Shown here: one piece after another, positions 12,080-31,023 of the stretch
Layout of the letters: each line of letters begins with the position of its first letter
Numbering within the stretch: position 1 is the stretch's first letter
Assembly (NCBI RefSeq): GCF_016903815.1
Contig: NZ_CP069973.1
Origin: Escherichia coli
GTDB lineage: Bacteria; Pseudomonadota; Gammaproteobacteria; Enterobacterales; Enterobacteriaceae
Strand: one strand, 5' to 3'
Length of the DNA: 64,000 bases
Position numbers and translations under genes: made by a program
Notes under the pieces: model-generated
The model's input: the letters and a program-made list of their open reading frames with translations, nothing else
Databases searched by the model: none
Told to the model about the DNA's origin: nothing

Positions 12080-12092
12080 GACGGAGTAAACG

Positions 12093-12341: not shown

Positions 12342-12424
12342 CCGCCTGAGCGCGGCTTTACCGCATACCAATAATGCTTCACGAGAGGCATTTTAGTTAT
12401 GCAATCAAATATAAGGAGTTACCC

Positions 12425-12800: not shown

Positions 12801-13089
12801 TAAGCGTGAAATATCGCAAATAATCGCAAGTTTTACTGATGAAGATTACGAACGAATCAACAGTGAAGTTGATCGCCTCTGCAAACGTTGCGACCCAATA
12901 AGCGAAATGCTTCGCTCATATAAACCAGATGAACACACTAAGGACGCTATCGACTGGCTGGAAGATGATGACTGTAACTATCAGGAAAAAGCCGCTGAAT
13001 GGTTCTGGGATGCAATAACCGAAAGAGTTAAGGCTGAATATGCCTTCGCAATATTCAAACGCAGACATATTTATGGAGAAGCTGCATGA
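12778..13089 (+). CDS. Hypothetical protein upstream of recT
   Basis: 103-aa ORF with its stop overlapping the recT start (ATGA). No nuclease motif seen. Confidence 0.55.
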   Translation: MMILTLNDKREISQIIASFTDEDYERINSEVDRLCKRCDPISEMLRSYKPDEHTKDAIDWLEDDDCNYQEKAAEWFWDAITERVKAEYAFAIFKRRHIYGEAA

Positions 13090-13997: not shown

Positions 13998-14463
13998 AAT
14001 TGCCAATGAATACGCAAAATTGATGGATTCAGATTTAGAACCAGAGATGATTGCTGACACAATAGAAGGCATGGAAGGAGAATTTACCGATAAAATAGAG
14101 CAACTTCTTGCCATTATTAAAAATGAATCTGGTTATGCTGAACGCCTCAAGGAAGAGGCAAAGTCACTGAATGAGCGAGCCGCAGTAATTCAAAATAAGA
14201 TTGAGAGCATCAAATCATATATAGCGTCATCGCTTGAAATGGTTGGCAAGAAAAAGATTCGAGCAGGTATTCACCAGGTAACAATCCGCAAACCGTCAGA
14301 AACTGTAGAAATCATCGACTCAAGCGCCCTTCCTCCTGAATACGTTGAGTTTGAAACGACAATTAAAGCCGACAAACTGGCAATCAAACACCAACTAAAA
14401 GCAGGAATAAATATCCCCGGCGCTCAACTCAAAGTTGGGAAACCTTCACTTCTTATCAAATAA
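13975..14463 (+). CDS. Siphovirus Gp157-family protein
   Basis: 162 aa, N-terminal coiled coil. SKLYEIANEYAKLMD...EGEFTDKIEQLLAIIKN matches my memory of PF05565-type proteins that follow recT. The start codon is uncertain (TTG 13975 or GTG 13981). Confidence 0.6.
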   Translation: MPVSKLYEIANEYAKLMDSDLEPEMIADTIEGMEGEFTDKIEQLLAIIKNESGYAERLKEEAKSLNERAAVIQNKIESIKSYIASSLEMVGKKKIRAGIHQVTIRKPSETVEIIDSSALPPEYVEFETTIKADKLAIKHQLKAGINIPGAQLKVGKPSLLIK

Positions 14464-14474
14464 CGGTATCGACT

Positions 14475-14789
14475 ATGAAAAAGACTCCATGGGAGAAATG
14501 GGAAGTCGATTTCTTGCGCGAGGTAGCGGCGACAATGCCAGTTGAAGTTATCGCTGAAAAACTGGAAAGGACTGAAAAAGCAGTAATGGCGAAAGCAACA
14601 AGGATTGGCGCTGACATTGTTAGCCGACTTCGTGGAAGACGATGGACAAGAGCCGAAGTATCACTTTTCGGTAAGTTCTCCGCAGAAGAAATAGCAATTG
14701 CAACCTGCCGCTCAATTTATTCAGTAAGAGCTATGCGATACAAGCTAAAAAAACTCGATGAAGAAAGAGCAGGCATACGAATAAATTAA
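14475..14789 (+). CDS. Hypothetical DNA-binding protein with two Myb/SANT-like repeats
   Basis: 104 aa. It has an internal repeat: W-x2-W-E-x2-FL...IAEKLERTEKAV and RRWTRAEVSLF...EIAIATCRSIYSV. Confidence 0.55.
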   Translation: MKKTPWEKWEVDFLREVAATMPVEVIAEKLERTEKAVMAKATRIGADIVSRLRGRRWTRAEVSLFGKFSAEEIAIATCRSIYSVRAMRYKLKKLDEERAGIRIN

Positions 14790-14805
14790 CATGGAGTAAT
14801 TAACA

Positions 14806-15087
14806 ATGAAGCTAAACATCGACCTTGGAAAATACGTTATTACCGGAACCAAACACGACCTGATTCTTAGTGAAAGAGGAATTATCAAAGAAGGCGAGAA
14901 TGCAGGGAAAGAAACACTAAGTCGTATCGGTTATTACAGCAAGTTTGAGCATCTGGTTAAAGAGTTATGCAACCGTGAAATCCTGTTATCTCAGGCGCAG
15001 ACACTACAGGATATTCAGCAGCATATCGAGACTTTAGGTGTATCACTTAGCACGGCTGTTGACCAGTTCGCGGAGAGTAAATCATGA
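14806..15087 (+). CDS. Hypothetical phage protein
   Basis: 93-aa ORF on the PL strand, ATGA-coupled to the next ORF. Confidence 0.5.
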
Positions 15088-15251
15088 GAGGACTTGCATA
15101 CAATCCCGGCATTCTTCCGGCAGAAATGATTATTCGCCAACGCGTAAAGCCAATGCCATCGAGAGAGGAATTGCTTAAGAGAAATTCTTTTCCATCAGTG
15201 AATCAAAACAAATATCTGAATTCGATGTGGCGCAAAGGAGGCAAGCAGTGA
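15084..15251 (+). CDS. Small hypothetical ORF (55 aa)
   Basis: ATGA coupling at both ends. Translation [55 protein letters not shown]. Below the ORF-track cutoff. Confidence 0.4.
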
Positions 15252-15502
15252 GTAATTCCGCACGACTACAGCTTGGTTTTTCACCGCTATCAAAAACTAT
15301 CATGCTGGCAAAAATGCGCGATGTTGAAGGTGGACGTATGCGCGTTGGCAATGATCCAGGTCGTGATGTTACCAATGAGGCTGCTCAATTGGTGTGGCGA
15401 CTGGTCATGGCTGAAGGTGGTGAGATCGCGTGGGAACTTGATGATGGTTCTCGCATGGTGTTGAAGGCAGAGAAGCAGGAGACAACCAGTGAGCAAGATT
15501 GA
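15248..15502 (+). CDS. Hypothetical phage protein
   Basis: GTG start preceded by AAAGGAGG. 84 aa. The track version starts at 15227. Confidence 0.5.
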
Positions 15503-16181
15503 CTATCAGGCACTGCGTGATGTGGCAGTGAAAGCCGGTAAAGATAAGTGGCAAGCTAAAAAAATAAACGGTGATTTTTTCGTTATTCGTCACGGTAGTT
15601 ATACAAGACAGCATGGCTACACATTGTATCAACCCATTGCGGAGATTGATTGTAAGTCAGTCCGGGATTTTGTTGCCAAGGCTAATCCGGCTACCGTGCT
15701 TGCGCTTCTTGATGAACTGGAAGCTCAAAGCAAACGCATTGCAGAGCTGGAGAAAAAAGCTGCACCAGATTCGTTTGGCATCATCGGTGAAAATATTCGA
15801 ACACAGGATAATCGAATAACGTCAGACCCTATGTTTTGTGTGTATCAAAAGCGCGAAATCGTTGTTGATGCTGATTATGACTATGACCGGATTGTCTGGG
15901 TTGATGAAGATGGTAATGAAGCCAATAAACGCCAAAGTCGTCGTCTCGAACTACTTCACGAAAACTTTCGAGAGCCACAAGAAAAATGGCGGCGCGTTGC
16001 TGTGAAAGATATTGATGAATTCGTTACCTGCTGTTTCACCGAACAGGGTTGTAAAGACTACCTGGCAGCCAATGGTCACAATCTTCGCTTGCCATTTATA
16101 TATGTAAAAAGCGGTTTCAGGAACGCTGAATATATCGGCATAAGAAACTGGCTTGCTGGCATTCGCATCAAAGGAGAGTGA
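15489..16181 (+). CDS. Ead/Ea22-like protein
   Basis: 230 aa. The central ANPATVLALLDELEAQSKRIAELEKK motif is characteristic of Ea22-like proteins of lambdoid phages. Confidence 0.6.
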   Translation: MSKIDYQALRDVAVKAGKDKWQAKKINGDFFVIRHGSYTRQHGYTLYQPIAEIDCKSVRDFVAKANPATVLALLDELEAQSKRIAELEKKAAPDSFGIIGENIRTQDNRITSDPMFCVYQKREIVVDADYDYDRIVWVDEDGNEANKRQSRRLELLHENFREPQEKWRRVAVKDIDEFVTCCFTEQGCKDYLAANGHNLRLPFIYVKSGFRNAEYIGIRNWLAGIRIKGE

Positions 16182-16182
16182 T

Positions 16183-16392
16183 ATGGCTATCGCTGCAAGT
16201 TACACCATGCATCTCTATTGTGATTGCCTCCAGTGTACAGATGGCAAATATAAGTCGCCAGACTTCGGTGAGTATATAGGTACGTCATGGGCTGGCTGTG
16301 CAAAAGAGGCGCGCAAGGATGGCTGGCGAATAAGCAAAGACAAAACGCGTGCTTTTGCGCCCGGGCATAAAGTTTTGAGGATTAACAAATGA
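16183..16392 (+). CDS. Hypothetical Cys-rich small protein
   Basis: 69 aa from the ATG preceded by AAGGAGAG. Contains HLYCDCLQCTDGKY. Confidence 0.5.
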   Translation: MAIAASYTMHLYCDCLQCTDGKYKSPDFGEYIGTSWAGCAKEARKDGWRISKDKTRAFAPGHKVLRINK

Positions 16393-17180
16393 CCACTTTA
16401 ACCGACAAAGAACTGATTAAAGAAATCAAAGAGCGCATAGGCAGCTTGGACGTTCGAGACAATATTGAGCGCCGTGCTTATGAAATTGCACTGGCATCGC
16501 TGGAAGCAGAGCCGATAGGTTTCCGTTGCAGGCGCAATGATAACCTTGGTGACTGGAGTTACGTATATCATCGAGAGCCAGATGATTTTGAGCGCAAACA
16601 TTTAGTGATAGAGGGCATTTACGCCTCCCCTCCAGCGCCAGTAGTACCGGAAGAAAAACCAATGCCTAATCCTCTTAGCATGTACGCGGTTGATGCTGTT
16701 GCCGCTATTGCAGAGGTGAGAGGCTGGAACGCCTGCCGCGCTGCCATGCTTCATAGTGCCGAACCTGCAAGTAATCATGAAGAGTTGCCGCTTGATTATC
16801 TCCAAGGTCAAAAAGATGGTCTTGAATGGGCTGCGCAGCTTGCAGAAGCAAATCACCCACAAACTGGCGACTGGCTTTACGATGACCCGCTGGAGCTGGC
16901 TAAAGCTATCAGAAAAGGTCCTGACATGCCCGAATTCGATGGACCAACTCCGGTGACTCCGGATAGTTGGATAAGCTGTAGTGATCGAATGCCGGAAGAC
17001 ACCAAAATGTTACTGGCATTTAGTCAAGGTCAAATAGTGGCAGCATATTGGAACTGGGTAGTGAGTCCAATTGATTACAAAAAATACAGAGCTTTCACAT
17101 ATTTATCAGGCAATATCTTGGATGACGTAACCCACTGGATGCCACTACCGGAACCGCCGCAGGAGGCTGACAATGGCTAA
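16389..17180 (+). CDS. DUF551-domain phage protein
   Basis: 263 aa. The C-terminal WISCSDRMPED...VTHWMPLPEPP is the DUF551 signature as recalled. Confidence 0.6.
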   Translation: MTTLTDKELIKEIKERIGSLDVRDNIERRAYEIALASLEAEPIGFRCRRNDNLGDWSYVYHREPDDFERKHLVIEGIYASPPAPVVPEEKPMPNPLSMYAVDAVAAIAEVRGWNACRAAMLHSAEPASNHEELPLDYLQGQKDGLEWAAQLAEANHPQTGDWLYDDPLELAKAIRKGPDMPEFDGPTPVTPDSWISCSDRMPEDTKMLLAFSQGQIVAAYWNWVVSPIDYKKYRAFTYLSGNILDDVTHWMPLPEPPQEADNG

Positions 17181-17457
17181 TCTGCAACTGGCAGTGAACG
17201 GCGAATACTTCGACCAGATGAAGCGGGGCGAGAAAACGGAAGAGTATCGCCTGTGTAATGACTACTGGAATAAGCGAATTATGTTCCGGGAGTATGACCG
17301 CCTGATTATCACAAAGGGATATCCGAAGCGCGACGATTCCAGTCGCAGAATTGATGTTCCGTATGGTGGATATGAAATCAAGACAATCATACATCCACAC
17401 TTCGGTGATAAACCGGTAAAGGTGTTCGCGATAAAGGTGAATATCGGCAATGAATAA
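17173..17457 (+). CDS. ASCH-domain-like protein
   Basis: 94 aa. LAVNGEYFDQMKRGEKTEEYRL resembles the ASCH/DUF3850 N-terminal signature. Confidence 0.55.
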   Translation: MANLQLAVNGEYFDQMKRGEKTEEYRLCNDYWNKRIMFREYDRLIITKGYPKRDDSSRRIDVPYGGYEIKTIIHPHFGDKPVKVFAIKVNIGNE

Positions 17458-17528
17458 CATCCTCGCACTCGCGGGGATTTCTTTTATCTGAACTCGCTAC
17501 GGCGGGTTTTGTTTTATGGAGATGATAA

Positions 17529-17696
17529 ATGCACTTCCGAGTCACTGGTGAATGGAATGGAGAGCCATTCGACAGGGTTATAGAAGCAGAGGACATCAAC
17601 GACTGCTATAACCACTGGATGATATGGGCGCAGATAGCGCATGCAGACGTAACCAATATTCGAATTGAAGAACTGAAAGAACACCAAGACGCCTGA
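17529..17696 (+). CDS. Small hypothetical ORF (55 aa)
   Basis: TGGAGATGATAA-ATG. Translation MHFRVTGEWNGEPFDRVIEAEDINDCYNHWMIWAQIAHADVTNIRIEELKEHQDA. Followed by a short GC hairpin and T6 (17690-17711). Confidence 0.45.
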   Translation: MHFRVTGEWNGEPFDRVIEAEDINDCYNHWMIWAQIAHADVTNIRIEELKEHQDA

Positions 17697-17753
17697 TGGC
17701 GGTTTTTTATTGCCTGATTTGCAGGTTCGATTCCCTATTCGGAGATAGCACTC

Positions 17754-17954
17754 ATGCAACACGAACTACAGCCTGATTCACTGGTTGATTTGAAATTCAT
17801 CATGGCCGATACTGGCTTTGGTAAAACCTTCATCTATGACCGGATTAAGTCCGGCGACCTTCCTAAAGCCAAAGTTATCCACGGACGAGCAAGATGGTTA
17901 TATCGTGACCATTGTGAATTTAAAAATAAGCTCTTAAGCCGCGCCAATGGGTAA
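17754..17954 (+). CDS. torI: Excisionase / recombination directionality factor TorI (AlpA/MerR-type wHTH)
   Basis: 66 aa, MQHELQPDSLVDLKFIMADTGFGKTFIYDRIKSGDLPKAKVIHGRARWLYRDHCEFKNKLLSRANG, which I recall as KplE1 TorI. It lies at the prophage end next to the argW core, as in KplE1. Confidence 0.85.
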   Translation: MQHELQPDSLVDLKFIMADTGFGKTFIYDRIKSGDLPKAKVIHGRARWLYRDHCEFKNKLLSRANG

Positions 17955-18027
17955 AATAGCGGGTAAAATATTTCTCACATCTAAAAAACACCATTCCAAT
18001 CAATCCCCTGCCGCTTCAAGTAGATGT

Positions 18028-18043
18028 CTGCAGGGGACACCAT
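18028..18043 (+). repeat. att core: attR of the lambdoid prophage and attL of the adjacent island (argW 3' end)
   Basis: CTGCAGGGGACACCAT equals the last 15 nt of tRNA-Arg(CCU) argW plus T. The preceding sequence is not tRNA-like, so this is a partial copy. Confidence 0.85.
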
Positions 18044-18206: not shown

Positions 18207-19493
18207 ATGTCCAGAAATACCCTCAACAAATTAACAGACCGTCAGTGCAAAGCAGCTAAGCCACGAGACAAAACTTATAAATTGTCTGATGGTGGTGGTC
18301 TTTATCTTGAAGTATCCCAGACCGGGTCGAAGTATTGGCGAATGAAGTATCGCCGCCCATCAGATAAGAAAGAAGACAGACTTGCTTTTGGTGTATATCC
18401 AACCATTAGCTTACAAGACGCCAGAGAAAAACGAGACAACGCCAAAAAGTTGTTAGTCAAGGGGATAGATCCCAAAGCAGAGCAAAGAGCAGCAAAAGCA
18501 GAAGAAAAAGGCGCATTCACTTTTGAGACAATAGGACGTCAATGGGTTGAAAGCCACCAGATGTGGAACGAAGACCACCGAAAACGCGTACTTAGAAGCC
18601 TTGAAATGTATATTTTCCCTCACATTGGCACTTCGGATATTCGCAAACTGGAGGCGATGACAATTTTACCTTTGTTTAAGAAGGTAGATGACGCCGGGAA
18701 ACACGATACAGCCAACCGACTTAAACAACGAGTTAAGGACATCATACATAGCGCCCGTCTGAGCGGCATTAAGACAGAAATCATCACGAATGATCTCGAT
18801 GTCCGGTTAATGCAATATGAAACTAAGCATCATGCCGCACTACATCCCAGAGATTTACCAGACTTTTTCACTCGATTGGGCAGCTTTAAAGGTAATCCTC
18901 TTACCCGCCTTGCCATTGAGCTAACCATGTTGACATTTGTTCGTTCAAGCGAGTTAAGGTTTGCCCGTTGGAAAGAGTTTGACCTTGATCGGGCTGAGTG
19001 GATTATCCCTAAAAAAAGAGAGCCTATCGATGGTGTGAGGTTTTCCACCCGTGGCACAAAAACGGGAAAAGACGAACATATCGTGCTTCTTAGCCGTCAG
19101 GCTGTTTCTATTGTAAAGCAGTTGAGAGAACTAAGCGGAAGCTACGATGTTGTGTTTCCGAATGAAAGAAACACCAAAGGCGTGATGAGTGAAAACACGG
19201 TAAACAAGGCATTACGCTTAATGGGCTATAACACGCAAGAGGACGTAACTGGACATGGATTCCGTGCCACAGCCTGTAGTTCCCTGATGGAGTCCGGTTT
19301 GTGGCAGGAGGACGCAGTAGAGCGCCAGATGAGCCACAAAGAATATAAAGACGTTAAAAGAGCCTACAAGCACAAGGCTGATTACTTAGAAGAGCGCAAA
19401 CTAATGCTTCAATGGTGGGCAGATTATCTGGACGCCAATCGAGAAATACATATAAGCCCTTACGAGTTCGGAAGGAGAACACGCCGTGACTAA
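18207..19493 (+). CDS. int: Tyrosine integrase, P4/IntS type (DUF4102 arm-binding N-domain)
   Basis: 428 aa. The N-terminus LTDRQCKAAKPRDKTYKLSDGGGLYLEV..GSKYWRMKYR, the catalytic region with HGFRATA, and the C-terminus YLEERKLMLQWWADYLD are all typical of P4-family integrases. Confidence 0.92.
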   Translation: MSRNTLNKLTDRQCKAAKPRDKTYKLSDGGGLYLEVSQTGSKYWRMKYRRPSDKKEDRLAFGVYPTISLQDAREKRDNAKKLLVKGIDPKAEQRAAKAEEKGAFTFETIGRQWVESHQMWNEDHRKRVLRSLEMYIFPHIGTSDIRKLEAMTILPLFKKVDDAGKHDTANRLKQRVKDIIHSARLSGIKTEIITNDLDVRLMQYETKHHAALHPRDLPDFFTRLGSFKGNPLTRLAIELTMLTFVRSSELRFARWKEFDLDRAEWIIPKKREPIDGVRFSTRGTKTGKDEHIVLLSRQAVSIVKQLRELSGSYDVVFPNERNTKGVMSENTVNKALRLMGYNTQEDVTGHGFRATACSSLMESGLWQEDAVERQMSHKEYKDVKRAYKHKADYLEERKLMLQWWADYLDANREIHISPYEFGRRTRRD

Positions 19494-20241
19494 GATGACA
19501 GGACTAGATGCGTTTTATAACGAGTCAGAAGATAAAATCTGGTTTGGTAATCTGATCAGCGAACTGGCAAGACTAAACAATGAAAATGAAAGAATGATCG
19601 CTGCCGCTATCTTAAGTAACTACAGATTGAGCAAAGCTAAACCAGATACTTTAGGGGGGCTGGGCTTTTATCAGTTCGATTGGGTATCAGGTTTTACAAC
19701 TAATGACGACTTTGAAAAGCAGTGTGTGGAGTTTTTAGGTCTTCTGGCTATGGGGCATGAATACAGGGAGAGCCCGATACCGGGGGAAGAAGGGACTTTC
19801 AACGTTAGGAAAGGGGAAGACTTTTTATATCACGATGATGAGGATGATTGGTATGGGTCTTACGATTCGTTTTATTTCAAGCGCTCCGAGGTTGTGAACT
19901 TCTTCCCAGAACTGGATATGAATGTTCCAGATAACGAACCAGAAATTGGAGCACTGTCAAAAAAAGTAGAAAGAGAACAAAACTGGAGAGGAAAAGATAC
20001 GGCTTTAAAGATGATCGCCGGAATGGCGATTGCCTTATTTGAATCAAGCAAAGATTTCCATAGTGGAGGAAACCTTAGTATCAATAGGGTTAGTGCCCAA
20101 GTAATAGAAAACAACATAATATTCGGGAACGATGAAGACAGCGATACCCACCCAGATACATTTCGGAGATTGCTAACGAACGCTTTGGATAAGTACGCCC
20201 CCAAATTTAAGAAAAAAGCAACCAAAAAGCGTCCAAAATAA
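19486..20241 (+). CDS. Hypothetical protein overlapping the int stop; Lys-rich C-terminal tail
   Basis: 251-aa ORF (GTG 19486 or ATG 19495) ending KFKKKATKKRPK. I recognise no family. Confidence 0.6.
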   Translation: MTKMTGLDAFYNESEDKIWFGNLISELARLNNENERMIAAAILSNYRLSKAKPDTLGGLGFYQFDWVSGFTTNDDFEKQCVEFLGLLAMGHEYRESPIPGEEGTFNVRKGEDFLYHDDEDDWYGSYDSFYFKRSEVVNFFPELDMNVPDNEPEIGALSKKVEREQNWRGKDTALKMIAGMAIALFESSKDFHSGGNLSINRVSAQVIENNIIFGNDEDSDTHPDTFRRLLTNALDKYAPKFKKKATKKRPK

Positions 20242-20637: not shown

Positions 20638-20829
20638 ATGCAGTTGAAACCTACCAATCAAAAGCTGAACGTAACCCATGTTGATTTTGAAACCTTCGCG
20701 GCACTGATTAGATCAGAGCCACAAAAGGTGAGCACCAGCACCTGGGTTTATGATGTGAAATCCACCAGCGGTGGAAAAGCTATCGGCATTGCCTCTGGCG
20801 ATGATTACTTAGTAATAGATCTGATTTAA
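20638..20829 (+). CDS. Hypothetical protein
   Basis: 63-aa ORF on the same strand as the island's regulatory genes. Confidence 0.45.
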   Translation: MQLKPTNQKLNVTHVDFETFAALIRSEPQKVSTSTWVYDVKSTSGGKAIGIASGDDYLVIDLI

Positions 20830-20910: not shown

Positions 20911-21105
20911 ATGATTAATTACCTGACCGCTAAAGACGCAGCAGAATATCTTGGCGTCTGTCTGTCACGCTTCTATCAGTTAAAGCGATATATCCGAAGC
21001 TTTCCTCCCTATATAAATCAGACCATCAATGGACGCAAGCGCCGGGTGTGGCTTGCCTCCAGCCTTGATCAATTTGCCGACAGATTTCTGGGGGGACGAA
21101 AATGA
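20911..21105 (+). CDS. Small HTH DNA-binding protein (excisionase-family fold)
   Basis: 64 aa. LTAKDAAEYLGVCLSRFYQLKR is HTH-like. ATGA-coupled to the next ORF. Confidence 0.6.
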   Translation: MINYLTAKDAAEYLGVCLSRFYQLKRYIRSFPPYINQTINGRKRRVWLASSLDQFADRFLGGRK

Positions 21106-21488
21106 GCACTCTTACACGCTCTCAGGTCGCCGCGAATATACGCGATATCCTACTAAGTGGCAGGAAGCTTACCCCAAAAGAGTTTGACGACATATTAAGG
21201 AAAGCCGGAAATCACGAACGTAGTCGCGTTTTAACGCTGTTACGCAACGATTGGGGAATTCCTGTTGAGCAGTTTAAAACAGAGGCGTATCACGTCACAG
21301 AACGCAATTTAGAAGCATACCACAGCGATAAAGACGAAACATTGAAGATCTGGAGGACGAACGCCAGATATGTAAAGACATTGCGTAAGGTAAACATAAC
21401 GTTGTCGTTGTTGCGTGGGCTGGTGGGTAAAGTGCCTGAAGACACGCTTAGAACTGTTTACAAGGGTATTGAAACCAAATACCTGTGA
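21102..21488 (+). CDS. Hypothetical protein
   Basis: 128-aa ORF translationally coupled to the HTH gene and followed by the hairpin AAAGCCGACT...AGTCGGCTTT (21499-21527). Confidence 0.55.
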   Translation: MSTLTRSQVAANIRDILLSGRKLTPKEFDDILRKAGNHERSRVLTLLRNDWGIPVEQFKTEAYHVTERNLEAYHSDKDETLKIWRTNARYVKTLRKVNITLSLLRGLVGKVPEDTLRTVYKGIETKYL

Positions 21489-21556: not shown

Positions 21557-22609
21557 ATGGAATTATACGATAAAGACGCGAGTCTATCCACAAAATCACA
21601 AGCCGTAATCAATCACATCAATGGTCGCACATTAGCTTATGTGAGATCAGTTACGCACAAACGTAATGAATTAAAGGCGGAGAATAAACGCCAATCATCA
21701 AAGGCTAACCACTGCATACCACCAGCTTGGACAAAGAAGAAATGGCGTACAATGAGGCGAGCTTTGTTTACTCTGGATGTCGAATCAACTAGTGGTATCC
21801 CCTACTCCTTTACCTTCAGACCCGTTAAGGGAACAACGCCAGAGAAATTCAACAAAGCGTTAAAGGCACTTACCAGATGGTTGACTTCGAAAGGCAATCA
21901 GTGGGTTTACGTCATGGAGTGGGCTCAACACCAGTCAGAGCCGCATGTACACGCAATAATTATGGTGAACGAAAGAAGCATTAATGGGCAAGCAGGCAAA
22001 ATTGTCAGCAAATGGGTAACACTGGCAAACAATGCAATCCCATCAAATGTTCCTCCCCAGTGGGATCTAGATTTGAAAGGTCAGCAATATTCAGAGCCTA
22101 CAAGGTGTATAGGTAAACAGATTGATTACATGGCAAAACCCGAAACTAAGTTAAATGACTTTAATAGAGAGGCGAGCAAGAGCCTATATGATTGGTCAGA
22201 TGCCAACGTTTGGGGTTATTCGAATGGCTGGGCGCGGCATGAGATAAAAAAAGAAACACTTTCTATCACTGGCTTTCATGCTGTAAGACGCATACTAAAA
22301 GCCATTCAGGCATCAAGGAAAGACAACTACAAAGTTAAGCGACAGATACAGCGTACATTGAAACGACAAGACATAAATCGCTCACCAATCACCCCGTTCC
22401 AAGCACCGTTAATTAGCAAACACGATTGGGATTTATCAGTGATAGCGGTCACCAAAGAGGCAGAGACAGAGCGCAGGGAGTTACTATCCTCACAGACAAT
22501 AAACTCGAACAAAGTACAAACCCACCCGCTGTTAAGGATGTTAAGAAAAGCACGAGTGAGAGCATCCAGAGCCAGAAGAGAAAGCGGAGGTTATGACCAT
22601 TACTACTAG
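21557..22609 (+). CDS. Putative rolling-circle replication initiator, HUH endonuclease (inovirus Gp2-like)
   Basis: 350 aa with three ordered motifs: ALFTLDV (res 69-75), WVYVMEW...PHVHAIIMV (HUH, res 129-137) and IDYMAKP (Y-x-x-K, res 189-195). The C-terminus is basic. Confidence 0.65.
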   Translation: MELYDKDASLSTKSQAVINHINGRTLAYVRSVTHKRNELKAENKRQSSKANHCIPPAWTKKKWRTMRRALFTLDVESTSGIPYSFTFRPVKGTTPEKFNKALKALTRWLTSKGNQWVYVMEWAQHQSEPHVHAIIMVNERSINGQAGKIVSKWVTLANNAIPSNVPPQWDLDLKGQQYSEPTRCIGKQIDYMAKPETKLNDFNREASKSLYDWSDANVWGYSNGWARHEIKKETLSITGFHAVRRILKAIQASRKDNYKVKRQIQRTLKRQDINRSPITPFQAPLISKHDWDLSVIAVTKEAETERRELLSSQTINSNKVQTHPLLRMLRKARVRASRARRESGGYDHYY

Positions 22610-23252
22610 TAGTGACAGATCGTGACAAGGCAGAGCAAAAAACGACCAATATAAGAGAAATATCCCTGCCCAATCGCCAAAAGCGCGGAGCGCGGAGCGC
22701 GGCAAGCGCCGCGAGAGGCGCAAGAAGGCGAACCTATCCATTGAAACGGTCAGAAGAGCGCATCGCGCTCGATGACCGAAGTCCCCACTAACACCGTTAA
22801 CGAAAGATCAAAGTCTTAGAAAAAAATGACGTTTCTTTGAAGGGCTTCCATCCGTAAAAATCAAATTTTGAGATAAAGTACTTATAGAAATTAATCACTC
22901 TATAAGAGTGAGTTGACGTGAGTTTGAAGTGAGCAACATATTAAAAATATATATAATAATCAAACATATAATAACAACTACTGAGCAAAAATCACCAGAA
23001 AACAACGTCAACGTAACGTCACTCTGTAAGCACTTTTTCAGTCACTTTTTGGGTTGAATACACGTATAAATCCCCAACCATGAAATTTGAGCGCGTAAGC
23101 ACGACTCTGAAAGGCTTTTTATCTTTTAACCATTTAATATACCTGAGGTATTGAAGAAGATTCTGAGACATATACTAGAACTTTACCGTGCACGACTAAC
23201 AACATAAACGTTATATTTATATATAAATCAATGAGATAAATACATCCCCATC

Positions 23253-23407: not shown

Positions 23408-24400
23408 TCAACGTTCGTAATAGTAATCCGACACCTCAGTAAAATCTATTTCCTCCCTAGAAAGTAATGATTCCATCTCATCTAGTTTATCGATTTGAGG
23501 CAAAACACTTGTTGGTGAAATCACAACATTAAAGTCCTCATTATATCGGTGACCTACCCTTGTGAGCTCTTTACCTAATTGCAACAATATATAATCACGT
23601 AAAATAAGTTGATTCCGTCTAAATCGAATAAGACGATAGTAATGGAAGAAATCAGAACATTTTGATGAATCATAATTTCTACCATTCCACCCGGTTTTCC
23701 TCGTAGCTCGGAATAATGCTTGCTCTTGCGTATTTTTCCAAATGCTAAAATCAAAGTGACTTTTCGGGTTAGGATTTTCGTATGTTGCTTGAGGATAAAA
23801 ATTAGTAACACCAAATTGATGCTTGTCAATGATCTTTAAAGTCCGATTTTGTTCAGACAACATCCGCCTTAAGGACCTAGGAATTTCGAAACGCATTAGT
23901 TTGTTTTTATCCAAGATTCTTAATTCTCTTGGAAGCATCTCATGATCCCGTTCTAAATATCTTTCACACCGTTTCGGCACATACTGAAAATACACTGAAA
24001 AAAAACAAAATATATTATCAGAAACGAGAGGAGTAATATGTATTTTTTCTTGCTCAGGAACGTTTTGAACAAAATAGTATGCCGTTCCTTGCCAAATCAA
24101 CGATTGCGCTACTGCCTCCACCAATTCACGTATTGTTTCATCTACCGAGTATTTCCTATATCTAGCTTGTAAATTTCCAAACATTTTACGTATGAGTTCT
24201 TCGTCGTTAGTTTCGACTTGAAACAAATTGGTATCACCGTGATTTACAAAATTAAAAACTCTAGCAAAATCCTCATAAAACATCCTTTGATAGAAACCTG
24301 GTCGTTCATTCTTAGACTTGGTCAATAGTCTATCAACAAAACTTAATTGCTCAGGATCGACGCTATAACCGTAAAGGGGTATATTCTTGATAATTTTCAT
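23408..24400 (-). CDS. Cargo gene B: 330-aa soluble protein of unknown function
   Basis: Long AT-rich ORF, ATGA-overlapped with gene A. No TM segment and no catalytic or DNA-binding motif that I can recognise. Confidence 0.85.
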   Translation of the reverse strand: MKIIKNIPLYGYSVDPEQLSFVDRLLTKSKNERPGFYQRMFYEDFARVFNFVNHGDTNLFQVETNDEELIRKMFGNLQARYRKYSVDETIRELVEAVAQSLIWQGTAYYFVQNVPEQEKIHITPLVSDNIFCFFSVYFQYVPKRCERYLERDHEMLPRELRILDKNKLMRFEIPRSLRRMLSEQNRTLKIIDKHQFGVTNFYPQATYENPNPKSHFDFSIWKNTQEQALFRATRKTGWNGRNYDSSKCSDFFHYYRLIRFRRNQLILRDYILLQLGKELTRVGHRYNEDFNVVISPTSVLPQIDKLDEMESLLSREEIDFTEVSDYYYER

Positions 24401-26862
24401 TCAAAATCCTTATCGTATTCCACGCCAAAACGACGAGCCAACTCACTAACATGGTAATCGATCTTGAAGTCAATTTGCTCGAGTTGCGGGAAAATTTCGA
24501 GAGCACAAAAGAGATGCGATGCATCTGAATGGGAGTTTAAGAACTCTCTGACAACTTTGTTCGTATGAGATTTCCCTCGATTCATTCCCATTTGATCGCT
24601 AAAGCCATCATGTCTTGCGCGGCGCTCAAATTCCATTTTCCAGTTAAGACGAATCATATCTCTCGGTGATGCGCACAAGCTGAAATTGCGCGGATTTGAA
24701 AGAATCATCATTCTCTTCAAATACTGCTGTTTGTTGGGAACAGACTCGAGCCAAGACTTAAACCTATCAAGTACTGTTTTAGATAGTTTTGCATTATCGA
24801 AATAAGCACTGTAAAGGATAGCAAAACCTAGAACTGACATCAGATCGTTGATCGCGGATGAAAGGAGATGCAGTCGAAACTCGTTGTTTATATCGAGTTT
24901 CGGATCTACAAATTTGGTATCTGATGCCAGCAATGAGAGAACCATGAACATAGGGAATACCTTGCTCAGTTTATTTTCATCATTCTGTTCAAGCGCATGT
25001 ATACATTCCTCAGCCAACTCAAAATATATCTGTCCAAAATGATCCGGTAGTTCATCATCTTGCTCTTGTTCAATGATATGTCCCACAATTTCCACCCTAC
25101 CAAGAATAGCTATAGCTTCATCCTGTGTAACGACAAACTGTTTGAGCATTTCAGCAATATTAATTTCTGGTAATGCGTATAGCTTTTCAGAGTAGTGCTC
25201 GTACTTTCTGTATCTCTCCAAGAGCAGAGAAAGTTCATTAAACCAATGGGGAAACTTCAAATGATTATGTAGGCTAGCGAGAACGACTTGCGTTGCGGCT
25301 TCCGGCATCTTCATGTTTATCAGTGAGTTAACGAAATCTGGAACCATGTTTACGTGAAAATCGCATACTTCTGGCAGAATTTTAGAATATTGTTGTAATA
25401 ACTTCTGAACCGCCAACTGCTGGACGTACTTTGGTTTGGATAATCTCTGTCCTTCAATCTCTTTTTCGAATTCGATACGTTCTACGATAAAGGCCAACTC
25501 AACCTGCAGAAAAGCAGGCAAAGTGTGTAGAGAGGTCTCTGTCCAGATATCATCTTTAAAGAACTGCTCCAATTCTTTCTCAAAAGTAATCATGCGGCGT
25601 AACATTTCAAGGCAAAGATTGCTGCCTAATGCAGCCCATGCATCCGCAATTCCAACTTTTATCACCTTTTCCTCAAAATAATTAACGACATCAGACGGTG
25701 TAAAGGCTTTTTCAATGATCGTCTTCATTTTCCGAAGTTCACGTATACCAATATCGAACTGAAACTGTTGTGCATAAGTTAATATACGAGATGAGAATAG
25801 ACTGATGAGATCCAACCCGAGCTTGAAATCACCGGCTTTGAATGCAAGTTCAATATGGCCTACCAACCTATTGATAATTTCATTCTCTAACCAAAGATAA
25901 TTTGGTTCTTCTTCAACCGTTAATTGGCTCCTTGTTTTTAAAGCAATGGATGTTACACTGTCGCCAGCTAAGAACCATTGCTTATGTTTTATTCGTCTAG
26001 GGAACCAGTAACTTTGATAATCAATTCTGTGTTTCTGATTAAGGTAATGAAGAAGTAATGCCGAATAAACATTACTGAGAGCAGGTAAATTATCTCCGAG
26101 TCCTACTTTTTCACATATCAGGCGATCATCAATGTAGTTTAACTGCTCAAAGGCCAAATGTGCGGCTTTAGAGTGATGATTAGCTAAAGATACTGAATTC
26201 TTGGGATTAGACGCACCTTCGATGTGTCGTGCAATTCGTGGGAGTATTTCACTTCGGGCTAACTGATTTAGGTCAAAAAAATTGAATAATCTTTGACCTA
26301 ATGGGAACAGAGCTAAGGAACTAACAAGTGTCAGCAATGTTCCCATTGCATAAACGAAAAGACCGGGTTCAACCCCGAACAAGTGGAGAGCAGTTGCACT
26401 AAGACAAAACACCGCAGAAAGCACTAAAGTCCGCGAATACACATTACCTACCTGCTCGGTAGTAAGCATTTGTATAATATCTCGCCGAAGTCTGGTATAT
26501 CCTGTACTTAGAATGATACCTATTGTAGCAAAGTATATTGAAAATATAGCGGTAAGTATCTGTGCGTACAACCTAAGTTGATCAATATTAAATTTTTTTT
26601 CATCATAGCTAAGAGGATGAAGCAAAATCGTATTATTCCGAATATAATCTTCAACAAAACCCAGTGCAAATAACGTTAATATGACCCATAACAAATTTTT
26701 TAAACCTACCAACGCAAAAGACATAAAAACATGAGCGTTAGACTTAGCTTTAAAAACAGACGTACGATGTATGTATGACGCACGTTCTAAAATAAATCTA
26801 ACCCTCACAAGATCTGTTCTTAATTTCCAGAACCACTTTTGAGAAATAAGCCAAACCTTCAT
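24397..26862 (-). CDS. Cargo gene A: 821-aa membrane protein (4 predicted TM + ~630-aa helical cytoplasmic domain) of unknown function
   Basis: 2.46-kb ORF (ATG 26862; the track uses TTG 26874). Hydrophobic segments at about res 50-75, 107-127, 150-169 and 173-194, with a basic loop TRLRRD between TM2 and TM3. I recognise no domain. Confidence 0.85.
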   Translation of the reverse strand: MKVWLISQKWFWKLRTDLVRVRFILERASYIHRTSVFKAKSNAHVFMSFALVGLKNLLWVILTLFALGFVEDYIRNNTILLHPLSYDEKKFNIDQLRLYAQILTAIFSIYFATIGIILSTGYTRLRRDIIQMLTTEQVGNVYSRTLVLSAVFCLSATALHLFGVEPGLFVYAMGTLLTLVSSLALFPLGQRLFNFFDLNQLARSEILPRIARHIEGASNPKNSVSLANHHSKAAHLAFEQLNYIDDRLICEKVGLGDNLPALSNVYSALLLHYLNQKHRIDYQSYWFPRRIKHKQWFLAGDSVTSIALKTRSQLTVEEEPNYLWLENEIINRLVGHIELAFKAGDFKLGLDLISLFSSRILTYAQQFQFDIGIRELRKMKTIIEKAFTPSDVVNYFEEKVIKVGIADAWAALGSNLCLEMLRRMITFEKELEQFFKDDIWTETSLHTLPAFLQVELAFIVERIEFEKEIEGQRLSKPKYVQQLAVQKLLQQYSKILPEVCDFHVNMVPDFVNSLINMKMPEAATQVVLASLHNHLKFPHWFNELSLLLERYRKYEHYSEKLYALPEINIAEMLKQFVVTQDEAIAILGRVEIVGHIIEQEQDDELPDHFGQIYFELAEECIHALEQNDENKLSKVFPMFMVLSLLASDTKFVDPKLDINNEFRLHLLSSAINDLMSVLGFAILYSAYFDNAKLSKTVLDRFKSWLESVPNKQQYLKRMMILSNPRNFSLCASPRDMIRLNWKMEFERRARHDGFSDQMGMNRGKSHTNKVVREFLNSHSDASHLFCALEIFPQLEQIDFKIDYHVSELARRFGVEYDKDFE

Positions 26863-26973
26863 TATATCAATCAAGTGATACCTGCCTTCTCATCTCTACA
26901 TGCAACATAAAAATGCTTACTATGGTGGCAAACAAAATCAAGAATCATATGTTTGAACACTTTTTACGCACGA

Positions 26974-27087: not shown

Positions 27088-27264
27088 TCAGGTAAGTTTG
27101 CTGGGGTCTACGGTTTCCATCCAATCTGGAGCAATTCCCAAACGTTCCGCTATCTCTTCGTTGGTCATGTCTTCAGTTGAGAAATTAGCCAGAGAATCGT
27201 TAACTTCAGGATAGTCAGGGGAGAGTAACAGGTATTCCCGCAACGCTTTCAGATCTTTTTCCAT
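27088..27264 (-). CDS. Small acidic ORF (58 aa), divergent from the recombinase gene
   Basis: GGAGCGTTAAA-ATG RBS. Translation MEKDLKALREYLLLSPDYPEVNDSLANFSTEDMTNEEIAERLGIAPDWMETVDPSKLT. Has its own terminator. Below the ORF-track cutoff. Confidence 0.55.
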   Translation of the reverse strand: MEKDLKALREYLLLSPDYPEVNDSLANFSTEDMTNEEIAERLGIAPDWMETVDPSKLT

Positions 27265-27435
27265 TTTAACGCTCCTTGTTTATTGACAGTCGAACGATGG
27301 TGAAGATTCTTGCCATCTCAAGTACAGGCAAGAAAATCCACCAGAACACCAAATTATCTCATAAGGTTAAATCGGTGTCGGGCTATTTCTTTCGGCTAGG
27401 TGAGTGTACCGCCTTAACCACCGGCAATTATCATT

Positions 27436-27560
27436 GTCTCAATTGGGTATACCGTAATGACAAGGTGATACAAAGTCTCAATAGGGTTGTATAGGAACAT
27501 TTTGACTACACAAAATGCATTATGTATCATTTGCACTTATATTCACAACCCTATTGAGAC
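27436..27560. promoter_or_regulatory. res-like recombinase binding region overlapping the recombinase promoter
   Basis: Three copies of (T/A)GTCTCAAT(T/A)GGGT: 27436-27448 (+), 27475-27490 (+) and 27545-27560 (-). The last two form a perfect 16-bp inverted repeat. TTGACT-N17-TATCAT (27502-27530) lies between them. The total span of ~125 bp is similar to Tn3-type res. Confidence 0.55.
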
Positions 27561-27566
27561 AATGCA

Positions 27567-28327: not shown

Positions 28328-28350
28328 TTCGATTCCTGCAGGGGACACCA
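28328..28350 (+). repeat. Right-end att: 23-nt copy of the argW 3' end (pawZ-like tRNA-Arg pseudogene fragment)
   Basis: TTCGATTCCTGCAGGGGACACCA equals the T-loop through CCA of argW as recalled. There is no upstream tRNA body. Confidence 0.85.
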
Positions 28351-28790
28351 GATACCCTTCAAACCAAATCTACCTTCACCCCGTAAAAGATGGGTTTGGC
28401 GCACACTAGCCCTATATCTACTCATTTTTACTGCAACAGGTTGAAATCTCAGCACTGTCAGAAAGCGCTGATGACTAAACAGCCCTGGGCCGGGCGATGT
28501 AACCATCATACAGAATCCTGATAGCGAAATATGGCGTGACTCGATACTTCACTCTGCAATGCATTCCTTGATGAATTCGCAGGCCCGTGATACTCGGGAC
28601 AGGTCGCTGAATGACGACAATGTCCTGGAAATCAGCGAACCGCGTATCCGGAGTACATTTGAGCGACTGTACCAGAACATGAATGAGGCGTTTGGATTAG
28701 GTGATTATTAGTTGGGCTAAGCATTTTTGTATTATTATTTTCCGGTTGAGGGATATGGAGATATCGACAACAACCGGAAAAAGTTTACGT

Positions 28791-30038
28791 CTATATTGCT
28801 GAAGGTACAGGCGTTTCCATAACTATTTGCTCGCGTTTTTTACTCAGGAAGAAAATGCCAAATAGCAACATCAGGCAGACAATACCCGAAATTGCGAAGA
28901 AAACTGTCTGGTAGCCTGCGTGGTCAAAGAGTATCCCAGTCGGCGTTGAAAGCAGCACAATCCCAAGCGAACTGGCAATTTGAAAACCAATCAGAAAGAT
29001 CGTCGACGACAGGCGCTTATCAAAGTTTGCCACGCTGTATTTGAAGACGGATATGACACAAAGTGGAACCTCAATGGCATGTAACAGCTTCACTAATGAA
29101 ATAATCCAGGGGTTAACGAACAACGCGCAGGAAAGGATACGCAACGCCATAATCACAACACCGATAAGTAATGCATTTTTTGGCCCTACCCGATTCACAA
29201 AGAAAGGAATAATCGCCATGCACAGCGCTTCGAGTACCACCTGGAATGAGTTGAGATAACCATACAGGCGCGTTCCTACATCGTGTGATTCGAATAAACC
29301 TGCATAAAAGACAGGAAAGAGTTGTTGATCAAAAATGTTATAGAAAGACCACGTCCCCACAATAAATATGACGAAAACCCAGAAGTTTCGATCCTTGAAA
29401 ACTGCGATAAAATCCTCTTTTTTTACCCCTCCCGCATCCGCCGCTATGCACTGGTGATCCTTATCTTTAAAACGCATGTTGATCATCATAAATACAGCGC
29501 CAAATAGCGAGACCAACCAGAAGTTGATATGGGGACTGATACTAAAAAATATACCGGCAAAGAACGCGCCAATAGCATAGCCAAAAGATCCCCAGGCGCG
29601 CGCTGTTCCATATTCGAAATGAAAATTTCGCGCCATTTTTTCGGTGAAGCTGTCAAGCAAACCGCATCCCGCCAGATACCCCAGGCCAAAAAAGAGCGCC
29701 CCCAGAATTAGACCTACAGAAAAATTGCTTTGCAGTAACGGTTCATAAACGTAAATCATAAACGGTCCGGTCAAGACCAGAATGAAACTCATACACCAGA
29801 TGAGCGGTTTCTTCAGACCGAGTTTATCCTGAACGATGCCGTAGAACATCATAAATAGAATGCTGGTAAACTGGTTGACCGAATAAAGTGTACCTAATTC
29901 CGTCCCTGTTAATCCTAGATGTCCTTTCAGCCAAATAGCGTATAACGACCACCACAGCGACCAGGAAATAAAAAAGAGAAATGAGTAACTGGATGCAAAA
30001 CGATAGTACGCATTTCTGAATGGAATATTCAGTGCCAT
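28791..30038 (-). CDS. cscB: Sucrose:H+ symporter CscB (MFS, LacY-like)
   Basis: 415 aa, MALNIPFRNAYYRFASSYSFLFFISWSLWWSLYAIWLKG... recognised as CscB. Confidence 0.95.
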   Translation of the reverse strand: MALNIPFRNAYYRFASSYSFLFFISWSLWWSLYAIWLKGHLGLTGTELGTLYSVNQFTSILFMMFYGIVQDKLGLKKPLIWCMSFILVLTGPFMIYVYEPLLQSNFSVGLILGALFFGLGYLAGCGLLDSFTEKMARNFHFEYGTARAWGSFGYAIGAFFAGIFFSISPHINFWLVSLFGAVFMMINMRFKDKDHQCIAADAGGVKKEDFIAVFKDRNFWVFVIFIVGTWSFYNIFDQQLFPVFYAGLFESHDVGTRLYGYLNSFQVVLEALCMAIIPFFVNRVGPKNALLIGVVIMALRILSCALFVNPWIISLVKLLHAIEVPLCVISVFKYSVANFDKRLSSTIFLIGFQIASSLGIVLLSTPTGILFDHAGYQTVFFAISGIVCLMLLFGIFFLSKKREQIVMETPVPSAI

Positions 30039-30099
30039 AATTACCTGCCTGTCGTTAAAAAATTCATGTCCTATTTAGAGATAAGAGCGGCCTCGCCGT

Positions 30100-31023
30100 T
30101 TACTTCTCACCTTCCAGTTCTTGTCGACATGGCAGCGCTGTCATTGCCCCTTTCGCTGTTACTGCAAGCGCTCCGCAACGTTGAGCGAGATTGATAATTC
30201 GTCGCATTTCTCTCTCATCTGTAGATAATCCCGTAGAGGACAGACCTGTGAGTAACCCGGCAACGAACGCATCTCCCGCCCCAGTGCTATCGACACAATT
30301 CACAGACATTCCAGCAAAATGGTGAACTTGTCCTCGATAACAGACCACCACCCCTTCTGCACCTTTAGTCACCAACAGCATGGCGATCTCATACTCTTTT
30401 GCCAGCGCGCATATATCCCGATCGTTCTGTGTTTTTCCACTGATAAGTCGCCATTCTTCTTCCGAGAGCTTGACGACATCCGCCAGTTGTAGCGCCTGCC
30501 GCAAACACAAGCGGAACAAATGCTCGTCTTGCCATAGATCTTCACGAATATTGGGATCGAAGCTGACAAAACCTCCGGCATGCCGGATCGCCGTCATCGC
30601 AGTAAATGCGCTGGTACGCGAAGGCTCGGCAGACAACGCAATTGAACAGAGATGTAACCATTCGCCATGTCGCCAGCAGGGCAAGTCTGTCGTCTCTAAA
30701 AAAAGATCGGCACTGGGGCGGACCATAAACGTAAATGAACGTTCTCCTTGATCGTTCAGATCGACAAGCACCGTGGATGTCCGGTGCCATTCATCTTGCT
30801 TCAGATACGTGATATCGACACCCTCAGTTAGCAGCGTTCTTTGCATTAACGCACCAAAAGGATCATCACCGACCCGACCTATAAACCCACTTGTTCCGCC
30901 TAATCTGGCGATTCCCACCGCAACGTTAGCTGGCGCGCCGCCAGGACAAGGCAGTAGCCGCCCGTCTGATTCTGGCAAGAGATCTACGACCGCATCCCCT
31001 AAAACCCATACTTTGGCTGACAT
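30100..31023 (-). CDS. cscK: Fructokinase CscK (PfkB family)
   Basis: 307 aa. MSAKVWVLGDAVVDLLPE..., GGAPANVA and DSTGAGDAF motifs. Confidence 0.95.
   Translation of the reverse strand: MSAKVWVLGDAVVDLLPESDGRLLPCPGGAPANVAVGIARLGGTSGFIGRVGDDPFGALMQRTLLTEGVDITYLKQDEWHRTSTVLVDLNDQGERSFTFMVRPSADLFLETTDLPCWRHGEWLHLCSIALSAEPSRTSAFTAMTAIRHAGGFVSFDPNIREDLWQDEHLFRLCLRQALQLADVVKLSEEEWRLISGKTQNDRDICALAKEYEIAMLLVTKGAEGVVVCYRGQVHHFAGMSVNCVDSTGAGDAFVAGLLTGLSSTGLSTDEREMRRIINLAQRCGALAVTAKGAMTALPCRQELEGEK

Follow-up and report, generated by a model that had tools for sequence, protein, structure and literature searches.

Why does an island in a bacterial chromosome carry a gene resembling the replication gene of small rolling-circle plasmids? 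This question is raised by a 64,000-nucleotide stretch of Escherichia coli DNA (contig NZ_CP069973.1 of assembly GCF_016903815.1), hereafter the window, in which an open reading frame (ORF) named rep occupies positions 21557-22609. An inspection of the letters alone, hereafter the sequence-only reading, had taken its product, Rep, for an HUH-type replication protein on an integrase-bearing island. It had proposed that the excised island may replicate by a rolling-circle mechanism, which would raise its copy number and the dose of its cargo genes during helper induction. In summary, I can state with high confidence that Rep is an HUH rolling-circle initiator of the Pf3/pVT736-1-like lineage. 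The best explanation of its presence, which I regard as reasonably probable, is that Rep initiates the replication of the excised island.

Is the rep gene genuine? The ORF lies on the plus strand and encodes 350 amino acid residues followed by a stop codon, and it is genuine and intact. PGAP gives rep three different lengths (350, 285, and 215 residues). The N-terminal sequence M[E/K]LYDKDA is kept in a 49%-identical homologue of Citrobacter/Klebsiella, and thus M1 is the true start. The 285- and 215-residue calls are start-site artefacts. In every backbone variant of the island examined (E. coli, E. albertii, and Citrobacter/Klebsiella), the 350-codon frame is open and all catalytic residues are kept. 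The dN/dS ratio of rep is 0.18-0.54 and is below 1 in all 15 pairwise comparisons. In many complete genomes, RefSeq calls the identical gene a "rolling circle replication-associated protein" or a "replication protein".

The sequence-only reading had pointed to three motifs: FTLD (residues 71-74), PHVHAII (residues 129-135, preceded by WVYVMEW at residues 116-122), and YMAK (residues 191-194). All four strings are indeed found at these residues. In an alignment of 20 relatives with 17-26% identity, the columns of E121, P129, H130, H132, W153, Q177, Y191, and K194 are invariant. PHVHAII and Y191/K194 are conserved catalytic motifs, and, judged from this conservation, the HUH and Y-x-x-K assignments are real and far exceed chance. 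The metal site is predicted to consist of H130, H132, and probably E121. An HUH nuclease fold is present in the AlphaFold model of Rep, in which H130-V-H132 is on a strand (130-137) and Y191 is on a helix (185-192). The FTLD string, however, is not motif I, since it forms the end of a helix (60-72) in the model. The conserved motif I is at residues 84-88, which read FTFRP in the window Rep; T86/L87 are nearly invariant within 'u-T-L-T' in the 20-sequence alignment, and the segment is a strand (81-87) in the model. The C-terminal ~110 residues are basic and helical. Another AlphaFold model, made from 5 sequences, was unusable (pLDDT 38.6).

To which family does Rep belong? Its sole above-threshold Pfam match is PF23343 (REP_ORF2-G2P), with 29.8 bits and an E-value of 7.6e-7 over residues 85-143. 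All 20 aligned relatives match PF23343 (best E 8e-11). Among the same relatives, nine match Helitron_like_N, two distant ones weakly match the pSAM2 RepSA model, and three match the PHROG family "rolling circle DNA replication initiation"; the window Rep itself has no match to RepSA. NCBIfam and PADLOC gave nothing for Rep, and sequence searches of the PDB gave no significant match. A resemblance to the inovirus Gp2 family had been noted in the sequence-only reading, with PF11726 as the family to search. PF11726 has no match to the window Rep at E<=1, and the matching family is PF23343. E. coli YfjJ, which matches PF11726 with an E-value of 1e-63, also matches PF23343 at 29.9 bits. In an hhalign comparison, Rep and YfjJ gave a probability of 12% over 31 columns, and their common part is only the W-V-x-E-[WY]...H-x-H segment. 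The absent model match and this low probability exclude Rep from the PF11726 ("inovirus Gp2"/YfjJ) family. The inovirus link holds for the lineage, as PF23343 includes the Rep of the inovirus Pf3.

Close homologues of Rep are few; a profile search across all 1.84 billion representatives returned only 29 sequences at E<=1e-3. A tblastn search of a phage collection with the window Rep found no match, and a distant subgroup alone reaches Pf3 directly. BLASTP of the window Rep against Pf3 ORF278 gave an E-value of 9e-5. The profiles of the island-type Reps and of the Pf3/mini-plasmid group were aligned by hhalign with 99.5% probability (E 4.2e-23, 228 columns). Kazlauskas et al. (2019) assigned the Rep of Pf3 to the "pVT736-1-like" cluster, the rolling-circle plasmid Reps of which have no helicase domain (PMC6668415). 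Like Pf3 ORF278 and the smallest proteobacterial plasmid Reps, the island Rep has the nuclease homology of ~230 residues and the motifs u-T-L-T, E...P-H-x-H, Q, and Y-x-x-K, and has no helicase domain. Unlike them, it has an extra N-terminal region of ~55 residues and a basic C-terminal region of ~80-110 residues, and the identity is only ~20-24%. The homology, the conserved catalytic residues, and the fold are thus demonstrated, and the claim of an HUH-type Rep was borne out by the invariant residues, the PF23343 match, and the AlphaFold fold.

What do the relatives of Rep replicate? The distant Rep subgroup has 355 metagenomic matches, the best 80 of which are all on contigs of 1.1-4.7 kb. 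Exact terminal overlaps of the assembler k-mer length reveal 47 of these 80 contigs to be circles of 1.2-1.9 kb, in which rep is the sole sizeable ORF. Their Reps are 45% identical to Pf3 ORF278 and 45-50% identical to the Reps of pXF1.3 (Xylella, 1,286 bp), of a Xanthomonas citri plasmid, and of E. coli/Klebsiella/Raoultella plasmids of 1.4-1.5 kb. Among the matching catalogued plasmids, 21 of 22 are typed as non-mobilizable. Since members of the lineage serve Rep-only circles of 1.2-1.9 kb and the single-stranded DNA (ssDNA) phage Pf3, the role of a replication initiator is the natural reading. Hundreds of such tiny Rep-only circles (L022-L101) were seen in marine, wastewater, soil, and gut metagenomes, and pXF1.3 (L119) and E. 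coli p4_050613 (L120) are their relatives.

The nearest non-enterobacterial full-length relatives of the window Rep are on two circular metagenomic contigs, L121 and L122, of 4.5 and 4.9 kb. Their Reps (P0012 and P0040) are 26% identical to the window Rep over the full length, including the C-terminal region. Directly upstream of rep, both carry a homologue of the island orf128 (33% identity, E 5e-14), and their resolvase is homologous to that of the island (E 1e-15). They further carry a small cargo gene, a small reverse ORF beside the resolvase gene, and an HTH_17 protein. Unlike the island, they are free circles that have no integrase, AlpA, or att sites. Clusters of GTCAC/GTGAC repeats lie downstream of rep and upstream of the HTH_17 gene in both contigs. 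Thus, the same replicon demonstrably exists as free circular plasmids, and because integrase-less plasmids carry homologous orf128, rep, and resolvase genes, the island is read as a plasmid replicon fused to an integration module. A relative with 22% identity keeps the order of P4-type integrase, ~250-residue ORF, HTH_17 protein, and Rep. Intermediate relatives of Rep were found in phage-like contigs of 65-94 kb (L116 and L117, IMG/VR). Since the rep module is found in several kinds of mobile elements, it is a portable replicon. In L116 and L117, the neighbours of the rep gene encode a 5'-3' exonuclease, RecA, an SPFH protein, and a Rep3-type initiator, and thus each of these elements has two different initiators.

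Is the island itself real? It is 10.3 kb long and is bounded by a 15-mer derived from argW, CTGCAGGGGACACCA, two exact copies of which are in the window against 0.01 expected. An intact tRNA-Arg directly precedes the island in prophage-free genomes. The order of the island is integrase, orf251, AlpA, orf63, HTH, orf128, rep, ~510 bp of non-coding sequence, cargo, orf58, and serine recombinase (Table 1). The island boundaries are thus demonstrated, and the att repeats, the P4-type integrase, and AlpA bear out the earlier description of an integrase-bearing island.

Where would Rep nick this element? The candidate double-strand origin overlaps the stop codons of rep. The block holds a palindrome, ACTACTAGTAGT, and two GTGACA repeats 11 bp apart. 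At 22607-22621, the sequence TAGTAGTGACAGATC agrees at 13 of 15 positions with the motif of Pf3-type replicons, TAGTAGTTACATATC. It is the top match of a position weight matrix (PWM) for part of the origin (sub-PWM) in the island, with a score of 16.1 against 5.8 for the next match, and this score was reached in 13 of 300 shuffles. A reduced origin pattern is unique in the 64-kb window. In the Klebsiella-type island, TAGTAGTAAGAGATC is found at the same offset at the rep stop codon. The block of ~30 nucleotides at the stop codon is the sole similarity between the downstream tails of the two island types, the Reps of which are 49% identical. In the plasmid L121, ATTAGTAGT is found once, 5 nucleotides past the rep stop codon. 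Among the mini-circles, 43 of 46 have CTTGATTA, with the consensus CCTTGATTAGTAGTTACATA(T/A)C, 100-200 nucleotides upstream of rep. The same motif is in the Pf3 intergenic region upstream of ORF278, in pXF1.3, and in an E. coli mini-plasmid. The island and the Pf3-type replicons are alike in that a related TAGTAGT-containing block adjoins rep on the rep strand. They differ in that the Pf3-type origins are upstream of rep and have CTTGAT, whereas the island candidate overlaps the rep stop codon and has no CTTGAT. In origins of the phiX174/pC194 class, the nick core is CTTG|AT. The stop-codon origin of the island is a candidate, a prediction rather than a result.

How widespread is the island? 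Of 5,426 complete E. coli genomes, 537 have a match to Rep; Rep is full-length in 220 genomes (~4% of the total), many of which are human clinical isolates. All 544 copies of rep in E. coli are chromosomal. In a scan of genomes at the species level, matches were limited to E. albertii and one Citrobacter. A sister element of Citrobacter/Klebsiella (L003/L008) occupies the same argW site and shares 92% DNA identity from attL to 22 nucleotides into rep. Past this breakpoint (window 21557-21579), its rep product is only 49% identical. Since the identity falls sharply 22 nucleotides into rep, the rep cassette and the downstream site were exchanged as a unit. The mobility of the island across genera is thus demonstrated. 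The cargo also differs between variants. A Sll1717 P-loop ATPase, a ParA-like protein, and a GTPase are encoded in other variants, and the Klebsiella/Citrobacter sister has a nucleotidyltransferase and an HNH protein that matches PDC-M68A, a candidate defence family, with an E-value of 9e-34. PADLOC gave nothing for most of the variant cargos. By analogy, since defence-like and NTPase genes fill the slot elsewhere, the overlapping gene pair of the window is a candidate defence system.

How would such an island work? The orf128 and rep genes, the stop-codon block, the structured tail, and the resolvase with its res-like site would form a small plasmid-type replicon. This replicon would have been joined to a P4-type integrase/AlpA module, giving an island in the 3' end of argW with an exchangeable cargo slot. 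I infer a cycle of four steps, including the catalytic activity of Rep, the excision, the amplification, and its trigger. The integrase, with AlpA, would excise the island as a circle. Rep would then nick the plus strand at the origin and become covalently linked to it through Y191. Host enzymes would copy the circle by the rolling-circle route; a host helicase and a host polymerase would be needed, since Rep has no helicase domain. Lastly, the resolvase would reduce multimers to monomers. On the present sequence comparisons, rolling-circle replication after excision is plausible. That amplification would raise the dose of the cargo, as the sequence-only reading supposed, is pure inference.

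Several observations weigh against replication of the excised island by Rep. The first ones concern Rep and its origin. The window Rep clears the PF23343 gathering threshold (27.8 bits) by 2 bits only, and the dN/dS ratio of rep is as high as 0.54. The full 26-nucleotide PWM of the Pf3-type origin scored 7.6 in the island against a shuffle 95th percentile of 10.1, which is not significant, and the CTTGAT core of the Pf3-type motif is absent from the candidate origin. The reduced origin pattern was picked after the sequences had been seen, and the sub-PWM did not rank the stop-codon site first in L121 and L122. The others concern the mobile form. An attP junction (...TTTTCGATTCCTGCAGGGGACACCATCCCGC...) was found neither in the 5,426 complete E. 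coli genomes nor in IMG/VR nor in the fetched loci. No excised, tandem, or episomal copy of the island was found among the complete E. coli genomes, and rep with its tail had no match in 72,556 plasmids. Decay also occurs; ~300 other genomes, mostly of O157:H7, have a 5'-truncated rep remnant, and IS66 and IS3 are inserted within the backbone in some strains. One contig was considered as an excised circle. L104 (Logan SRR36072360, 8,128 bp) extends precisely from attL to attR of the Klebsiella-type island, with a break at each att site. It is not a circular assembly: its sequence follows the integrated form collinearly, and its ends do not overlap. L104 would fit either a mixture of occupied and empty sites or excision in the sample concerned.

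Could the island be a phage satellite? In such a case, a helper phage would trigger AlpA-dependent excision, Rep would produce rolling-circle concatemers or ssDNA circles, and these would be packaged in helper virions. The helper would be a tailed phage, as for PICMI and VEIME elements, or a filamentous phage, as for pDolos. This scenario would add to the replication of the excised island by Rep rather than exclude it. It is suggested by the layout, which resembles that of PICMIs: an integrase, an ORF overlapping its stop codon, alpA, a replication gene, and a few unknown ORFs in a small element. The island and the PICMI/VEIME elements (5-17 kb) share a tyrosine integrase and accessory cargo as well, and several VEIME subgroups pair the tyrosine integrase with a serine recombinase, as the island does (PMC9618062). 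The replication of PICMI/VEIME elements has been described as rolling-circle-like (PMC10803314, PMC9618062), and concatemers are the replication product of PICMIs (PMC10803314). One member of the Rep lineage is an inovirus, and a rolling-circle plasmid reportedly acts as the satellite of an inovirus (bioRxiv 10.1101/2023.11.28.569023). The cargo slot recalls the defence hotspots of P4-like satellites, and one variant has the PDC-M68A-like HNH protein.

On the other hand, PICMIs have a primase and not an HUH Rep and reside next to fis in Vibrionaceae, and their helper dependence and concatemer packaging have been shown. Scans of the island with Pfam, PHROG, and NCBIfam revealed neither terS, capsid, sid/psu, or ppi-like genes nor any recognisable packaging signal; PICMIs also have no such genes, so that a PICMI-like lifestyle is compatible with this result. 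No LexA box was found in the island. The prophage next to the island differs among strains or is absent, and the P22/HK620-like prophage of the window is a mere co-tenant of argW. Neither an attP junction nor a concatemer was found in IMG/VR. The IMG/VR matches were considered as evidence of packaging and were rejected, since they are chromosomal, prophage-adjacent segments of isolate genomes. The product of orf251 and that of the ORF at the same position in the distant locus L011 are not detectably similar. The helper induction supposed in the sequence-only reading is therefore unsupported, and I consider the satellite scenario unlikely. It is still more doubtful that the island represents an undescribed enterobacterial family of integrative rolling-circle elements acting as minimalist phage satellites, in which a Pf3-type plasmid replicon, a P4-type integrase/AlpA module, and an exchangeable slot for possible defence genes are combined, an E. 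coli/Klebsiella counterpart of the marine PICMI/VEIME elements with a different replication mechanism.

Alternatively, the rep module may be an inactive relic, and the island may move rarely, by integrase events or by homologous recombination of its flanks. The absence of any episomal or tandem form in the complete genomes, the dN/dS values of up to 0.54, the IS66/IS3 insertions in the backbone, and the ~300 O157:H7 genomes with a truncated rep are what a relic would leave. Chimeric proteins, Rad52-Rep and Int-Rep fusions, point the same way. However, the ORF and its catalytic residues are intact in all the backbone variants examined, dN/dS is below 1 in each comparison, the block at the stop codon is kept in rep types of only 49% identity, and the rep cassette and the cargo were swapped while the architecture was retained. 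Thus, a relic seems quite improbable. In the chimeras (P0007 and P0008), a Rad52/Rad22 domain or an integrase N-terminus is joined to the C-terminal part of Rep, which indicates deletions or rearrangements that fused island and prophage genes in some strains. The O157:H7 remnant starts inside rep (from query position 3849 onward) and adjoins a 'tail needle knob' gene of P22-like type. Both the 215-residue 'replication protein' P0002 and phrog_30534 derive from this remnant, and thus phrog_30534 is a truncated Rep.

HUH relaxases and Reps have a common chemistry, and some integrative mobilizable elements of Firmicutes use Rep-like relaxases. It is nevertheless highly improbable that Rep is mainly a relaxase nicking an oriT of an excised integrative mobilizable element for transfer by a co-resident conjugative plasmid or integrative and conjugative element (ICE), a role that would suit the spread across genera and a weak match in the HUH region to the MobA/VirD2 relaxase nuclease PF03432 (E 0.0055), because this match is below threshold (17.4 bits against a cutoff of 24.6) and covers only the shared HUH core, the nearest relatives replicate Rep-only plasmids of 1.2-1.9 kb and a phage genome, with 21 of the 22 catalogued plasmids being non-mobilizable, and the Pfam, NCBIfam, and PHROG scans found no coupling-protein or mobilisation accessory genes on the island. 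An IS91/helitron-like rolling-circle transposase, which was raised by the nine Helitron_like_N matches, was rejected, since every copy examined is at argW, with tRNA-derived att repeats and an adjacent tyrosine integrase.

Replication of the excised island by its own Rep thus stays the best explanation. Are similar islands known? RefSeq already has the gene call, and rolling-circle initiators are known from other integrated elements, so that the finding is solid but not surprising. The pSAM2-type integrative elements of actinomycetes (AICEs) and the rolling-circle ICEs resemble the island in having a tRNA target, a tyrosine integrase, and an HUH initiator used after excision. The pSAM2-type AICEs differ in Rep family, host phylum, and architecture, and the island has no transfer genes. 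The P4-like, PICI, cfPICI, PLE, and PICMI satellites are likewise small islands with an integrase, an AlpA-type regulator, and their own replication module, but the module of the present island is an HUH Rep and not a primase/helicase. In the E. coli islands of the CP4-57 and CP4-6 type with YfjJ/YagK, a gene for a small HUH-like protein comes after those for a P4-type integrase and AlpA, and YfjJ has W-V-x-E-Y...H-Y-H. CP4-57 differs in having the DUF3987 protein YfjI and in lacking orf128 and the resolvase, and YfjJ belongs to PF11726. The Pf3-type replicons are free, whereas the island rep is in an integrated 10-kb element. Literature searches on the protein accessions and on PF23343 found nothing, the island family was not found described in the literature searched, and, with the terms tried, no mention of the argW site was found in a paper on E. 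coli defence islands.

An active replicon would make the island a compact and experimentally tractable example of a plasmid-type rolling-circle replicon that turned integrative, with a slot exchanging genes, some of them defence-like, across genera. Members of the Pf3-type Rep lineage are found on Rep-only circles of 1.2 kb, on plasmids of 4.5-5 kb, in large phage-like genomes, and in islands of chromosomes. For experiments, the catalytic residues and the origin predicted at the stop codon of rep are direct targets.

Table 1. Features of the argW island in the window.
Feature	Position	Strand	Remarks
attL core	18028..18042	+	copy of the tRNA-Arg (argW) 3' end, CTGCAGGGGACACCA; also the right att of the P22/HK620-like prophage upstream
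P4-type tyrosine integrase, 428 aa	18207..19493	+	Pfam Arm-DNA-bind_3 7e-29, Phage_int_M 1e-18, Phage_integrase 8e-17
orf251	19486..20241	+	first 8 nt shared with the 3' end of the integrase gene; same position as the 'integrase-overlapping gene' in PICMI satellites
AlpA-family regulator/excisionase, 63 aa	20398..20589	+	Pfam Phage_AlpA 4e-18; PHROG 'excisionase and transcriptional regulator'
orf63	20638..20829	+	conserved backbone, in all backbone variants; no family match
small HTH_17/excisionase-like DNA-binding protein, 64 aa	20911..21105	+	HTH_17 6e-5 (below gathering score), TIGR01764 'excise' 0.007
orf128	21102..21488	+	conserved rep partner, directly upstream; no family match
hairpin, perfect 10-bp stem, 7-nt loop	21501..21527	.	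between orf128 and rep
rep	21557..22609	+	single-tyrosine HUH rolling-circle initiator without helicase domain; motifs, family match, model
candidate double-strand origin block	22601..22627	+	ACTACTAGTAGTGACAGATCGTGACAA; overlaps the triple stop TAG TAG TGA
non-coding tail of rep module	22610..23120	.	conserved to ~23120 in every cargo variant of E. coli and E. albertii
variable cargo slot	23408..26874	-	two overlapping genes, 330 aa and 825 aa; the 825-aa product with several hydrophobic N-terminal segments
orf58	27088..27264	-	small conserved ORF beside the resolvase; annotated in all variants
res-like site	27432..27564	.	GTCTCAATAGGGTTGT three times (two direct, one inverted; 16 nt) within 130 bp upstream of the recombinase gene
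small serine recombinase (resolvase/invertase type), 208 aa	27567..28193	+	Pfam Resolvase 2e-23
attR core	28336..28350	+	second copy of the argW 3' end

Some other features of the island deserve a description. The orf251 product has no match in Pfam, NCBIfam, or PADLOC. An ORF of ~250 residues is also found at this position in the Klebsiella-type island and in L011, again without detectable sequence similarity. The orf128 product is probably an accessory protein of the replicon. The hairpin that separates orf128 from rep is possibly a terminator or an attenuator; the Citrobacter element is 92% identical over the segment containing this hairpin, which is thus not tied to one rep type. In the tail, the first ~300 bp are nearly invariant and contain G+C-rich hairpins and a GCGCGGA repeat. 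As ssDNA, these 300 bp fold better than shuffled sequences (z = -3.5), and the tail is possibly a single-strand origin or a regulatory region. The GCGCGGA heptamer is present in three tandem copies in the window (22683-22703) against two in all other variants examined. An ORF at 22612-22791 was rejected as a gene, since a 7-bp repeat indel between variants shifts its frame; it is probably non-coding. Rfam gave no match in the island.

The Tn3/gamma-delta res site is the model for reading the repeats upstream of the recombinase gene, and by this analogy the three copies of GTCTCAATAGGGTTGT resemble a res site. In the variant L007, a second, degenerate copy of the recombinase gene flanks an extra gene, which hints that the serine recombinase may also take part in cargo exchange. 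The cargo pair of the window has no match in Pfam, NCBIfam, PHROG, or PADLOC.

Upstream of the island, positions 1-18042 of the window are occupied by a P22/HK620/Sf6-like prophage that ends in torI and is integrated in tandem at the same argW site. The integrase end of this prophage and the intact tRNA gene are outside the window, and ARAGORN found no tRNA within the window. Downstream (28559-31023 and beyond), a DUF4942 fragment and the csc genes for sucrose utilisation are followed by a truncated dsdX and by dsdA, and the argW-dsdA interval is a variable hotspot.

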